Of a stretch of 64,000 nt of DNA, positions 3,476-53,169 are shown one piece after another. Where the stretch lies: NCBI RefSeq assembly GCF_006345805.1, contig NC_043011.1, positions 22,270,464-22,334,463 of the forward strand, given 5' to 3'. This DNA is from Octopus sinensis (taxonomy: Eukaryota). The translations under genes and the position numbers were made by a program. How positions within the stretch are numbered: the stretch's first letter is position 1; every line of letters begins with the position of its first letter. Below the pieces are notes generated by a model. The model was not told where the DNA came from and did no database searches. It was given only the letters and a program-made list of their open reading frames with translations.

Positions 3476-4284
3476 CCCTTTATCATTCAGATAATTCTGT
3501 CAAATATAATGCTTAGTTACATTGTTTTCAATCAATCGTGCATTATCTTGAAGCTTCAAGATTTCAGTGATGTGATTGTTTATTTTTAGCCCTTAAAGCA
3601 TTCAGATTACTCTGTTAAGCGAATTCATATTTATTCACAGTGTTTGTATTAATCATGCATTATCTTTATAGGCATAGGAGTGGCTGTGTGGTAAGTAGCT
3701 TGCTTACCAATCACATGGTTCCGGGTTCAGTCCCACTGCGTGGCATCTTGGGCAAGTGTCTTCTACTATAGCCTCGGGCCAACCAAAGCCTTGTGAGTGG
3801 ATTTGGTAGATGGGAACTGAAAGAAGCCCGTTGTATATATGTATATATATATATGTATGTGTGTCTGTGTTTGTCCCCCAACATCGCTTGACAACTGATG
3901 CTGGTGTGTTTACATCCCCGTAACTTAGCGGTTCAGCAAAAGAGGGTGATAGAATACGTACTAGGCTTACAAAGAATAAGTTCTGGGGTTGACTAAAGGT
4001 GATGCTCCAGCATGGCCACAATCAAATGACTTAAACAAGTAAAAGAGTATCTTGTAGCTCTGAGATTTTGATGATGCGATTGTATATTTTAAAACTGATA
4101 TTGTAGGGTAGGTGTAAGAGGCCAGATCTGGTCAGTTTAAACATAAAACAAATAAAATATTTGGGCCAGATATGGCTGGTTTAAATGTTAAAAGGTTAGA
4201 ATGACATTATAGACTAGGTGTGAGAGGCTGGATATGGCAGGTAGACAATTTGAGCCAGATATGGCCAGTTTAAATGCTAAAAGG
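3476..4284. mobile_element. Nested piggyBac-like MITEs (outer 3476-4284, inner 3590-4195) with SINE A 3671-4048 inside
   Basis: CCCTTT.GCATT-type terminal inverted repeats. The outer copy has TTAA flanks and the inner copy has TTAG/TTAG flanks. Same family as 17499-17716 and 36608-36828. Confidence 0.75.
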
Positions 4285-4584
4285 TTAAATATAAAAAAAT
4301 AAAAAGAATTCAAGAAAATTAGCACACTATTCAGCTTCTATATTTCTTATTTATCATTGCTACCCATTAAATGGAAACGAGAAAAGTGGTTTCATAATTG
4401 TTTAACAGCTCAGCTAAAGTTAGCTGTTTCAGATGTTGTAAAGTGACAGAGCCACTGATCCAATTTAGAGTTGAAAGTAAGCATGTTACTAAAGAAATTT
4501 TTTGACACATAAAAGAAAAATAACTCTGAACAATTAAATAAAAGCAATTAAAGAAATTGATTTGAAAAAAATTATCCAACTTAC

Positions 4585-4685
4585 TTAGGCCGGTTCTTGA
4601 TGATTTCTCCTGTACTTTTATGAATTTGACAAATTAATCGTTTCCAAAGAACAGGTTCTGTTGTTGACTGGTAATGGAATACACT
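4585..4685 (-). CDS. HBS1L: HBS1-like GTPase exon (SVFHYQSTTEPVLWKRLICQIHKSTGEIIKNRPK)
   Basis: 101 nt, CAG/GTAAGT, phase 0->2. HYQ...EP...KSTGE matches HBS1L domain III. Confidence 0.95.
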
Positions 4686-4899
4686 CTGAAACAGTAAAAT
4701 CAGTATGTTGAAGTTGTATATGAGATTTTAATAGCCACTATTGTTGAAGTAGTGCTTCAATGTAAAAGAAAATGATATTGGGGAAAAGGATTTTGGAATT
4801 ATAGAAGCACACTTGCCCTCGTTGATGCCAAAAAAGAAGAGGAATGAAAATCTTATAAGAAGAGGTTGCTAAATGAAAAGACTATGAGAGAGAGAGAGA

Positions 4900-6470
4900 G
4901 CCCTTAACCCAACAGAGGGACCAGCTATTGAAGTTGATGTCAGTAGTATTTACTAGGATCCTGAAAGTGTTCAGCTAGTTATTAAGATAGTATAGAGAAG
5001 TGTCATACTCAATGACTAACAGCGATATCAGCATGGACTGTTATGAAAGAAAAAGAATGCTTTAAAAAGAATCAATTATAGAGACATCAAATTGATTGAC
5101 CAAATTATGAATGTCACATAAAGAGTAGAACTAATTCTGAAGAGAATTAGTTTAGACAGAGTGTTATTTGAGTTTGTGCTATGACAAAGTCCCACTGATA
5201 CTCTCATTCTAGTGAAACAATTTCATGAGAAATTCTTATCAAAGCACAAGCTACTATACTTAGCATTTGTTGACAGAGTACCATGCTCTATCTGTAGTCT
5301 GGTACTTTCTAAGAAAACAAGGCAAAATTGAATGGTTTGTGAGAGTTGTGCAAGCCATATACAGAAACACAATCAGTAAGATGAGAGTTGACAAGTCCTG
5401 TGAGAAATTTAGTGTAGAAGGTTTAGTTCTTAGCCCCTCCTGTTTAATATAGTTCTTCTCAAGGTCATAACAGAGGACCTTGAAGCCAGCTGTCAAGGGG
5501 TACTCTGTATGTTGAGGACCTAGTTCTCATACCTGAATCTGCTGAATATCTAGAGAGGAAAATCCAAATGTAGAAGCAAAGCCTGAAATGGAAAGGTCAA
5601 AAAGTAAACCAAATACAAGCAAAAGTCTTGGTCAGCAAAGAAGGAGACAAGACTTTATTGCCTTTGAGAAGTGGTCAGGTTTGATAAGCATAAAAAGAGT
5701 GTAGAGGAATTTCATGGTGTATTCAATGTTAACCATCAGTGCATGAGATGTACAGTGGGATCACAGGCAGACTGACAGAGAAGGTTTTGTAAGCAGCAGA
5801 TGCACAGGAATAGCAGTTTAAACACCCATGAAATGTATATCTTCAAATGTCTAGAATGCTCCCAACAAATAGTTGATAGCTTCCCTTACCTAAATGGCCT
5901 AATCAGCAATGAAGGTGGGTGTTTTGTGAGTATAGTAGCCAGAATACAGATGGAGTGGGAAAGTTCAGGAAAGGTACTATTTCGGTTGGTAATAAAGAAT
6001 TCTCTCTCCAAATGAAAGGTGGATTGTACGATGTTGGTGTAAACAATGTGATGTTGCAGGATAGCAAAAACATAAGTTTTGAATGTAAAGGATGGAAAGA
6101 AATAAGGCAAGCAAGCTCTATTGGATATGTAATGTTAGTGTGAATGAAAGATGGAACACAGATAGGTTGAGAGAAAAATTGAGTATGGGGAAAATCAGAT
6201 GTAGTGTGCAAAAGAAAAGACCAAGCTTGTTAGAACATGATGAATATATGGAGGATTGCATTTGGGTGAAGGAATGCCAAATAATTTGAATGGAAAAGCT
6301 CTGTGGAAGAAGAAAACTGAGGAAGACATGGGAAGAAGTGGTGAAAACTGATCTTAAGAGGTTGAACCTCACAAATGGGGATGATAAAGGACTGTAAAAA
6401 GGGTCAAGACATGGGGCTAGAGAAGACCTATCGGTCTCATGCGAGGATGGTAAAGCAGATATTAAATGAT
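4900..6470 (+). mobile_element. Degenerate RTE-clade LINE (RT and 3' end)
   Basis: Interrupted peptides NYRDIKLIDQIM, TDTLILVKQFHEK..LYLAFVD, LYVEDLVLI (decayed YADD), VDSFPYL and RKTWEEVV, with many stops and frameshifts. Confidence 0.8.
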
Positions 6471-7577
6471 GAGGATGTTAGCTATGATGATAATATATAT
6501 CATTTCCATACGTTCTTAATAAATTGCTAACCTCAAATACTTCATGATTCACATTAAATGCAACAGTCTCACCCATTTATGAGTGCAGGCATGGCTGTGT
6601 GATTAAGAAGTTTGCTTCATAACTACTTGGTCCAGGGTTCAATTCAACTGTGTGGCATCTTGGGCAAGTATCTTCTACCATAGCCTTAAGTTGACCAAAA
6701 CCTTGTGATTGAAATTTGGTACATGGAAACTGTGTGAGAGATCTATAAAATAAGCACCAGAATTGGGGGCGAAATAATCAACTAAAAACCTTCAAAGCAT
6801 GGCCACTGCCTAAAGATGGAAACCAGCAAAAGAACAGAAAAAAATATTCTTTTACCAATGTGTGACACATTCCTACAGGCCATGGGTAATGTTTTTCCTG
6901 CTCAGGAATAAAAATAAGGTTCTACAGGGAAAGATAACACTAAGTGGATTAATGGAACATTAGAAGTAGCTGTTCTCTTCACAGTTTTTCCAGAGATTCT
7001 TTGGAAGAATTCCATTTTGGCCACTTGTGTTCATAATTGTACTCATTTGGTACAACATTCATGGCCAAAGATGAGGACAAGCAAGAAAACCGAATTAAAA
7101 ATAGCAGGTTAAATAATACGTCTAATAAGGAACTTTAAGATATAGAACTGCTATACTTCTCTCCTTCTTCTATTTTATCACTATTAAGAAAGATGTGGAA
7201 CTTGAAGAATACTATATTTGATTGCATGTAAGATGTAGAGAAGTAGTTATGTACCCTGTCAAGTAATATTATTCTGGAGATCCTTCAGAGAAACTCCATT
7301 TCAGCTGCATGTATTTGTGATTTTATTCTTTTGATCATTAGCCAACATTCATGACCACAGGGTCACTTTAATTTCATTGACTTATTAATTGGTGCTGAGC
7401 TGGTAAAAATTGCAGTGCAACAGATTGAATGAAGGACATCCAGCAATAGGAACCATGCCAAAGCTGACACTGAAGCCGGAAGTGGTGTGGCAGTTCAATG
7501 GATCCTATAAAAACCATCCAACCCATGTCAACATGCATAATGGCAATTAAATGCTGTTGTTGATGATGATATTGAGT

Positions 7578-15421: not shown

Positions 15422-15724
15422 CAGTGTTTCTCAACCATTTTCTACCTATGGGCCCCTCTGATTTCTATTTTACTTGGGTGGATCCTACTAGTCATTCAAT
15501 TTTTTTTTTTAAATCCTGTTTTAATTTTATAATTAAGTATTATCAGGAACTGTATAAAAATTAATTTTAAAATATTTTCGGTGCTGCAGCATGGCCACAG
15601 CTCGTGAGCTGAAACTAGATGAAATGAAATGTAGAAATATAACCAATTTATTGGAGATAAATTTTAAGAACAAAATATTATCTGGACCTCTTAGGACCAT
15701 TTGAACCTTGGTTGAGAACTACTG
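15422..15724. mobile_element. hAT (Charlie-like) MITE
   Basis: TIRs CAGTGTTTCTCAACC / GGTTGAGAACTACTG and an 8-bp TSD CTCTAGAT / GTCTAGAT. Confidence 0.8.
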
Positions 15725-34833: not shown

Positions 34834-36003
34834 ATGTGTGTACTGTCATGCAAATGGTGCCCTTTATTTCCAAACTTTTGCAACATGTGCAGTCATAGGA
34901 AAAGATTAGATTACATGAAAACAGGTGAGGGTTGGCGACAAGCAGAGCAACGAGGTGTAGAAAATTTGTCTCCACATTTTCTGTCTGACTTATGCAAGCA
35001 TGGATTTGTGGACATTAAAATGATGATGATGATGATATGTATATGTGTGTGTGTGTGTGTGTGCAAATATATTTTCTGTTATTCTTTTAGATGTTTCAGC
35101 CCACAGGCTGCAGCCATGCTGGGGCATCGCCAGTAATAAATGTAAAGATGGACATAATACTGCTAAGCATTTTGTTTGGCTTCTGAGAGTGTATGCGTGT
35201 ATGAATAAATGTTATCAAAGGTACCAAAATGGTGTCTCTTACAGAAAAATGGATTTGATCCCAAGGAGAAGGTTTTTTGGTTATTCATCATCATCATCGT
35301 TTAATGTCCGCTTTCCATGCTAGCATGGGTTGGATGGTTCAACTGGGGTCTGGGAAGCCCGAAGGCTGCACCAGGCCAGTCAGATCTGGCAGTGTTTCTA
35401 CAGCTGGATGCCCTTCCTAATACCAACCACTCTGTGAGTGTAGTGGGTGCTTTTTACGTGCCACCGACACAGGTGCCAGACGAGGCTGACAAAAAAGAAA
35501 GATAATTTGCTATGTGAAATAACTCAACTTCCAGATCGCCAACATTGAATGCCTTTAGAAGCTGTCATTTCACACTCATGATAATCTGAGTATGTGTACA
35601 TTTGTATATGTGTGAGTGGGAGAAAGTGTATGCCACATCTTATAACTGTCTATCTACCTCTCTCTTATCTGTCTCTCTCAGTCTTTAATGCTTTCCTTCT
35701 TTCTCTACATACATTTACCACATTCTCTCTCCCTCTCCTTCTGTGTACGTGTATCTCTCATGCTTGCTGCTTTCCACCTCTCTCCCTTCATATATGACAT
35801 GTAATGAAAGTCTGTCCATGCATCTCTCTCTATCTGCCTTTTATGCTTTTCTCACTGTAAACTTACCTCCTCTCTATATATATATATTTAGCACACACTC
35901 TCTCACTCTTTTTGCTGTATGTTTGTATATGTGTGTGTGTGTGTGTAAGGAATTTCATCACAACGACAGAGTTGAAACTCCCTGCTCAAAGCATCAGCAG
36001 TGA

Positions 36004-51543: not shown

Positions 51544-52259
51544 TATCCTTTTCTAGGGAAAGGAGTTGTTTACATGTGATTTCAATTTCACATTCGTTGA
51601 AAGCATGTGAAATAACCTGGAGAAGAAAATGCTGGGAAACTCAGAGTTTCCCAGTGACCCAATGGGTAATGGGTAGTCTAATATTAATTCAAATTTAAAT
51701 CTCAAACATACCAAAATTTGCTTTTAAATTAAAAATCTAAAGCCATTTACTCCTCTTGCTCAATCTTTCGGTACAAAATGCATCAAGAAAACGTTTTGAT
51801 TAGTTTACACATCAATGAGACAGTCCAAGGCAAGATCTACTCACATGGACTTTCAATTCATATATTTATTGTAAACAAGGTTAAATTAGATTTGAGGGAA
51901 TTGATGAGAAAAGAAATTTGAAGAGATTTTTATGTAAATAAACCATTTGCTCTGTGGTAGATACCTTTTATCTTTTACTTATTTCACTCATTGAACTCCA
52001 GCTATGCTGGAGCACCACCTCAAAGGATTTGGTTGAACAAATGAAGCCTAATGTATTTTTTTTTCAAGTCAGGAACTTATTTATTCAGTTTCTTTTGCTG
52101 GACCACTAAGTTATGGGGATGTGAACAAACCAGCACTGGTTGTCAACTGGTGGAGGTGGGGTTCAAATCCAATCACCCCCATCCCACATAACGATGGCTC
52201 TTTTTTCCCTCTAGTTACAGCCCAGAGCTGCGGCCATGCTGATGCAGTGCCGTTTAGTA

Positions 52260-52300
<41 letters not shown>

Positions 52301-52695
52301 AACTTTTACTTCCTCTAAGCGATCGGGTTCAGTCATCTTCTCCGGGCCATCAGAGAACATGCCGACGATGGCACAGAACACTGTTGCGCATAAGTGGATT
52401 TGTCGACCAGATCCAAGGACCTCACCGGACCGTTCGATCGGTAGTAGCGATGGGCGGTGTGTACAAAGGGCAGGGATGTGATCGATGCGGGCTGATGACC
52501 CGCGCCTACTGGGAATTCCTCACTCAGGCCCCGATCCCTATCACGCGAGGTGGTTCAGAGGTTTCCCGACCCTCTCGGGCCAGGGAGACACGCCCGCTTA
52601 TACCTCCAGTGTAGCGTGCGTGCAGCCCTGGACATCTAAGGGCATCACAGACCTGTTTTCGCCTCATGCGGCTTTCTGCTGCCCGTCCCTCTAAG
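52260..52695 (-). pseudogene. 18S rRNA 3'-terminal fragment (pseudogene/retrocopy)
   Basis: The minus strand has CTTAGAGGGAC...AACAGGTCTGTGATGCCCTTAGATG...TTGTACACACCGCCC...GTAACAAGGTTTCCGTAGGTGAACCTGCGGAAGGATCATTA, with CpG transitions and short deletions. Confidence 0.95.
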
Positions 52696-53169
52696 TAGTT
52701 TCCATCATCCAAATTTGCTCACAAGGCATTGGTTGGTTCAGGGTTATAATATAAAACATTTGCCTCAGGTGCTATGCAATGGAACTGAACCGACAACCAT
52801 GTGGTAGCAAAGCAAGCTCTTTAACTACACAAGCTGTTATTTTCACTTTATTTTACAATTATTTTCTGATACCAATTATATAAAATTAAGCTTCAAAATC
52901 TTTCACCTTATACATATAAACCTGATCACAGTACAGTGAATTAGAGTAGTAGTTCCTAAACTCGTTATCATGGAAACTTTATATGATTCTTCAAAAACCA
53001 TGGAAGCGCTAGTTGTACAACATCCTTGAAACAAAAATTATTTTAGAGGGTGAACATACTCATAAAAAAATAAATAAACATATTACTTTTAAAAAGGTGG
53101 ATACAATCTTTAGTGAAATTTATCAAAACATTCTTCTCATCTTGTGGGACCCCAGAATTTAATATTTCT

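Follow-up and report, generated by a model that had tools for sequence, protein, structure and literature searches.

A probable one-off chimera of mature 18S rRNA and a LINE tail inside an older SINE of Octopus sinensis

Within the window, by which we mean the whole 64,000-nt stretch of Octopus sinensis DNA that was analysed, a minus-strand insert interrupts an old SINE and consists of a piece of 18S rRNA, four extra bases and the 3' tail of a LINE (Table 1). The 18S piece is 439 bp in length, truncated at its 5' end, CpG-decayed and marked by deletions of 5 and 14 nt. Its end matches the Rfam model SSU_rRNA_eukarya (E 1.7e-30), and when 52698-52260 was aligned to the 18S gene of an intact rDNA unit (L117; 18S of 2,645 nt, a length in keeping with the long 18S of cephalopods) 405 of 459 positions were identical (88%), the alignment ending at the last base before ITS1. 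This confirmed an earlier, sequence-only reading of the locus, which had described some 436 nt of 18S ending at the mature 3' terminus at 52260. The changes relative to the intact 18S comprise 26 CpG transitions in 112 CpG bases, nine other substitutions in 327 bases and 20 gap bases. Comparison with the species' own rDNA, the check proposed at that time, also showed that the tail is not ITS1, which starts with GCGCCG in the intact units. An rDNA orphon, with 18S running on into ITS1, was rejected because the 18S of the window ends at the mature end and is followed by a foreign tail.

Table 1. Positions of the parts of the locus within the window
Feature	Position	Strand	Remarks
Host SINE 5' half (family A, old tRNA-type; insertion target)	52697..52831	minus	74% against the intact window copy, and family alignment
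18S rRNA retrocopy	52260..52698	minus	18S positions 2187-2645 of 2,645; 3' limit is the mature 3' end
Two helix-45 loop adenosines	52278..52279	minus	18S positions 2626-2627; from the fold of the native 18S end; 18 nt from AA to the 3' end
Four extra bases between 18S and tail	52256..52259	minus	absent from both ITS1 and LINE upstream sequence
LINE tail, last 55 nt	52201..52255	minus	two small hairpins and a short A-run; starts at the foot of the first hairpin
Host SINE 3' half	51971..52200	minus	70% over 176 columns (52146-51971) against the intact window copy

The proposal that the insert splits a family A SINE also held, as both halves of the host align to an intact copy in the window, break at the site proposed and stay in register across the insert. 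At the 5' join there is a microhomology of 2 nt, the host SINE 5' half ending in GGAAACT with its final CT common to the 18S piece, and the four bases at the other junction are likely non-templated. No target-site duplication was found at the window locus; the best repeat, a 7-mer 609 nt away, is a chance match. The 18S piece (2.8% non-CpG change) and the tail (two to three changes in 55 nt) are of similar age and both are younger than the host SINE. On these alignments the locus is probably a genuine, one-off chimeric retrocopy of mature 18S rRNA, now decayed, within an older SINE.

The nearest match of the tail is the 3' end of a LINE (86-96% identity over 42-60 nt), and among the best 40 of 66 candidates many dispersed sequences match it at 84-96%. 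At L042, L060 and L064 the tail extends upstream into a reverse transcriptase ORF, and for the natural ORF of L060 Pfam gives RVT_1 alone (E 7.6e-32); from the motifs in these ORFs we take the donor LINE to be CR1-like. LINE sequence lies upstream of the tail in 18 of 29 tail loci and is missing there in the other 11, although two pairs among these 11 free tails are duplicates. All the free tails start at, or a few bases from, the foot of the first hairpin, the same point as in the window tail, and the enzyme therefore appears to end there often. Two free tails that had been recognised in the window, at 15580-15625 (+) and 35093-35135 (-), are indeed tails of related LINE subfamilies with neither LINE nor SINE body upstream. 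The resemblance to the tail of SINE A that had been pointed out extends to a stem-loop core common to both, with the LINE 3' end the closer match, and the short A-run seen after the junction is present but belongs to the LINE tail itself, since other copies end alike. As the hairpin core is common to SINE A and the LINE tail, SINE A was likely mobilised by the same LINE or a sister LINE. The folding energies of the tail hairpins did not differ significantly from those of shuffled sequences (z -1.6 and -1.1). At four loci (L038, L045, L047 and L062) 5' parts of SINE B or C are joined to a free LINE tail at T-rich points, with an additional inverted second copy at L047, and a jump of the kind described below could in this way supply an existing SINE with a new tail. 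A reverse transcriptase that we presume to be RTE-like stands beside two CR1-like reverse transcriptase ORFs of 322 and 630 aa at L119 (1466-3387 on the minus and 4049-7107 on the plus strand).

Searches of the 2.72-Gb assembly for 18S ends without ITS1 gave 16 18S-end chimeras, each with its own junction, a number that is a lower bound since exact patterns miss decayed copies. Places where the 18S continued into old ITS1 types were left out. The 16 come from pattern searches (13 places and 25 places), from searches anchored on 11-12 nt and from a read-through census. The partner is a LINE tail in five (the window, L093, L098, L104 and L111), the 5' start of SINE A in five (L089, L094, L097, L105 and L114), that of SINE B in four (L025, L092, L112 and L277) and that of SINE C in one (L109). 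In the remaining case, L096, the partner is an AT-rich stretch of 89 nt (L096:1516-1604), which is flanked by the 18S end on one side and by a duplication of 15 bp on the other and has no match among the loci compared. In all 16 chimeras the 18S runs to the mature end, or in L025 to within 3 nt of it, in none is ITS1 present, and the partners begin at their own 5' end. This is rare among chance matches: of roughly 45 motif matches that are not rRNA, one was situated just before a SINE start.

The other rRNAs gave similar products. Eleven 28S-end chimeras with junctions of their own were identified in a census that took in 55 of the 181 matches of one search, chosen for few CpG changes; they comprise seven of the eight matches of another search, which are real 28S pieces of 53-218 nt, together with L192, L152, L235 and L188, the last being a poly(A) case. 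There is one case of a 5.8S end directly before a SINE C start (L146) and one of a tRNA-like piece before a LINE tail (L037). Target-site duplications enclose both parts at L092 (about 18 bp with one mismatch), L096 (15 bp), L192 (14 bp), L277 (12 bp) and L227 (9 bp), and these five are therefore single insertion events. Many junctions contain a few extra bases or an A-rich spacer. Several places were not counted. Seven (L091, L095, L099, L100, L106, L110 and L113) have neither a partner nor a further 18S match and were put down to chance, the control giving five matches; L107/L108 (a tandem duplicate with the tail about 100 nt away), L229, L226, L236 and L210 are ambiguous; and L175, L185 and L186, with 28S ends of 419-1222 nt and no clear partner, were excluded from the 28S count. 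At L092, L096, L104, L111 and L112 the final A of 18S is missing and replaced by T or G, often followed by A-runs, which are perhaps the ends of trimmed, uridylated or adenylated 18S.

In end-to-end template jumping, described in PMC4476161 and PMC13708176, a reverse transcriptase that has come to the 5' end of its template adds bases and resumes synthesis at the 3' end of another RNA. The mature ends, extra bases and A-rich spacers of the chimeras fit such jumping, and the likely explanation is that a LINE reverse transcriptase jumped end-to-end from the tail onto 18S rRNA in one retrotransposition event, which we infer for the window also. Synthesis would have been primed on the LINE tail at a nick in the host SINE, and after the 55-nt tail the template would have ended, or the enzyme stalled, at the foot of the tail hairpin. 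A few untemplated bases would then have been added before a jump to another, abundant RNA at its free 3' end. On 18S the usual halt, after 15-19 nt, would be at the dimethylated helix-45 AA, and the window copy would have read through to give 459 nt, with the 5' end joined via the 2-nt microhomology. The product at the window would have had no promoter and did not amplify.

In 11 of the 16 chimeras the 18S reach is short (15, 16, 16, 16, 17, 17, 17, 17, 18, 18 and 19 nt), with the boundary to the helix-45 AA at 18 nt, although the majority of short pieces came from a search with a 15-nt pattern, which is blind to shorter ones, and the reaches may include chance matches in the flank. No piece is between 20 and 83 nt. 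The other five read through with the AA intact and reach 84-459 nt (the window and four of 84-192 nt), the AA being faithfully copied at the window; two of these long chimeras, L025 and L277, were added by the read-through census and weaken the reading that the pieces are always short. The anchored searches gave ten places, eight of 15-19 nt, the window, and one of 13 nt (L229) that is probably a chance match. The 28S pieces are 50-411 nt long (n=11). Short pieces thus make up 11 of 16 for 18S against 0 of 11 for 28S (Fisher p 3.5e-4), a comparison confounded by partner, since eight of ten 28S element partners are SINE B. By partner, the 18S is short in nine of ten chimeras with the CR1-like tail or SINE A and in one of four with SINE B (p 0.04, small n), where it reads through in three of four. 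The two 28S pieces with CR1-like or SINE A partners are 337 and 411 nt long, which differs from 18S with p about 0.04 in a count that includes the SINE C case.

KsgA/Dim1 dimethylates the two adenosines of helix 45 ahead of the last cleavage at the 3' end, and the resulting m62A fully stops reverse transcriptases in primer extension, according to PMC7897474 and PMC6380343. In such extensions on helix 45 of the small subunit the cDNA ends 3' of the first modified A, as do the 11 genomic pieces (PMC7897474, PMC6380343); there the stop is a laboratory read-out, and here it is deduced from pieces left in a genome. A gene of the KsgA/Dim1 family is present, with exons on contigs C13 and C2 above the cut-off, an assignment at family level that does not tell DIMT1 from TFB1M. 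On balance the analysis tips towards a LINE enzyme that repeatedly jumps onto mature 18S and halts at the predicted m62A pair, which would give the 15-19-nt caps, with the SINE B machinery reading through. Since the proportion of short pieces depends on the partner, the stop may belong to one particular enzyme. We also observed 18S fragments, some of them followed by ITS1 and others not, that begin at 18S positions 2534-2561, close to the helix-44 tip (L004, L013, L018, L019, L020, L023 and L025). This is possibly a second stall site, and hints at an origin of some of the dispersed rDNA pieces as retrocopies of pre-rRNA.

An alternative source for the short pieces is the RNA pool itself. Free 15-19-nt fragments of the 18S 3' end, cut at the helix-45 loop, might have been captured whole with no stall at m62A, and we regard this as possible, if distinctly less probable than a stop. 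The ragged ends of the pieces (15-19 nt) would suit it, as would the much more frequent capture of 18S than of 28S by CR1-like and SINE A partners (10 against 2), which is expected with a small free acceptor, and recurrent fragments are reported in LINE-1 chimeras (PMC11838501). However, the upper limit of length coincides with the modified AA to within one base, and the difference between partners (9/10 against 1/4, p 0.04) suits a property of the enzyme better than one of the RNA pool. The candidate for the complementary cut product, 18S without its last 15 nt at L271, was rejected and is a SINE inserted in an rDNA piece.

Alternatively, 18S might have been joined to the tail or SINE RNA by RNA ligation before reverse transcription, a route named as possible for sense 28S/LINE-1 chimeras (PMC11838501), and one that would likewise yield mature ends and a single insertion. 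We consider it unlikely. Most junctions have variable extra bases or A-rich spacers, and the extra bases would favour a join made during reverse transcription. Pol III products such as SINE RNA should bear a 5' triphosphate and the NOB1-cut end of 18S should be a 3'-OH, and joins between full-length SINE 5' ends and 18S 3' ends, with these expected termini, also speak against ligation.

Two separate insertions, either of an 18S copy lacking a tail plus a free tail or of a SINE landing at an rDNA fragment, are very improbable. It is true that the window locus has no target-site duplication, that free tails are common and that L271 is a case of a SINE inserted into the end of an rDNA piece, but precise joins at mature ends recur 27 times, five chimeras have duplications around both parts, and the two parts at the window are similar in age.

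The sequence-only reading had proposed that mature 18S rRNA was reverse-transcribed from a LINE-recognised tail and that the unit might represent an 18S-derived SINE-like family. The first part stands as a chimeric retrocopy in an older SINE; the second fails on the single-copy junction. Among the best 40 of 127 candidates the window alone matches the 18S-tail junction over all 141 nt, and the 5' junction is seen once, the next best matches being rDNA units at 89% (best 40 of 223 candidates). The exact 16 nt of the junction occur at two places, and the other (L032) was rejected as a second copy, as neither 18S nor tail surrounds the match, which is due to chance. A family would require that the 18S-tail unit was transcribed and copied as a unit, for which the LINE-recognised tail and the existence of five 18S-tail chimeras might be cited. 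Yet these chimeras differ in junction, tail subfamily and 18S length, and are therefore independent events and not copies of one another, and the private substitutions of the window copy are found in no other copy. We also know of no internal promoter in this part of 18S, which counts further against a family. An 18S-derived SINE reportedly exists in an insect, a report which our literature search did not turn up. With both junctions at the window unique, a family is highly improbable. The least probable account is an assembly chimera with an rDNA read, for which foreign rDNA with abrupt joins on unplaced contigs gives a precedent, as the piece is of the host's own 18S type yet 12% diverged with a CpG-decay spectrum, and the host SINE is in register on both sides.

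End-to-end jumping by LINE enzymes, our preferred reading, has several counterparts. Chimeric U6/LINE and U6/SINE retrogenes formed by template switching are described for the L1, L2 and RTE clades and, in lizard and platypus, for SINEs mobilised by LINEs (PMC4476161). As here, a cellular RNA is copied to its 3' end and stands 5' of a SINE or a LINE fragment, in matching orientation; in contrast, the donors in our chimeras are 18S, 28S and 5.8S rRNA, truncated at the 5' end and mostly at one site, and the term 'rRNA' does not occur in the main text of that paper. The 18 28S/LINE-1 chimeras in PMC11838501 also have an rRNA fragment fused in sense to a LINE, as one-off insertions of 50-482 nt, although these are mostly internal 28S segments whereas the joins here are at mature 3' ends, and '18S' has no occurrence in its main text. 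SINE28 and the 5S-derived SINEs (PMC4758252, PMC10946416) similarly place rRNA sequence before a tail usable by LINEs, but are described as amplified families with a shared structure, unlike the single-copy unit in the window. In R2 template jumping the enzyme leaves the end of one RNA and carries on from the 3' end of another; this was shown in vitro for R2, whereas here it is deduced from the genomic products of other LINEs. In the literature searched, which left most subscription papers outside it, we came across neither chimeras at the mature 18S end nor an m62A stop recorded as a genomic trace. These chimeras, and 18S caps that end beside the modified AA, would appear to be new, while rRNA/LINE and U6/LINE chimeras are known.

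Taken alone the window locus is an ordinary by-product, and the class of chimeras is the more useful. It indicates that, in the germ line, LINE enzymes encounter free ends of mature rRNA and complete their insertions with a jump onto such an end. Jumps of this kind are the presumed origin of new SINE heads, and here occurred 27 times without a resulting family. If the pile-up at 15-19 nt is an m62A stop, RNA modifications leave marks that are readable in genomes, and DNA alone would reveal both an rRNA modification and how well different LINE enzymes tolerate it. The caps would be too short for repeat annotation and may be general in animal genomes. Under the m62A reading two LINE enzymes should also differ measurably, a point of relevance to retrotransposon-based gene writing, where the capture of stray RNA at 5' junctions matters.

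Elsewhere in the assembly, near-intact rDNA units and fragments (L002-L022, L115-L118 and others) are spread over at least ten large contigs. Several of the 28S genes are truncated or interrupted; that of L115 stops at about model position 1900, and L117/L118 contain a long insertion. The 18S-ITS1-5.8S sequences on the unplaced contigs C1618, C7177, C8597, C8702 and C11711 (L272-L276), and also on C8694 and C9496, belong to a different organism, and L272-L276 were accordingly rejected as a repeated 18S-bearing unit. These copies are 98-99% alike, with a histone H3-like sequence in L272, and have abrupt joins at nearly one point of ITS1 that look like assembly chimeras. The source is likely a co-assembled parasite or symbiont, perhaps a dicyemid.
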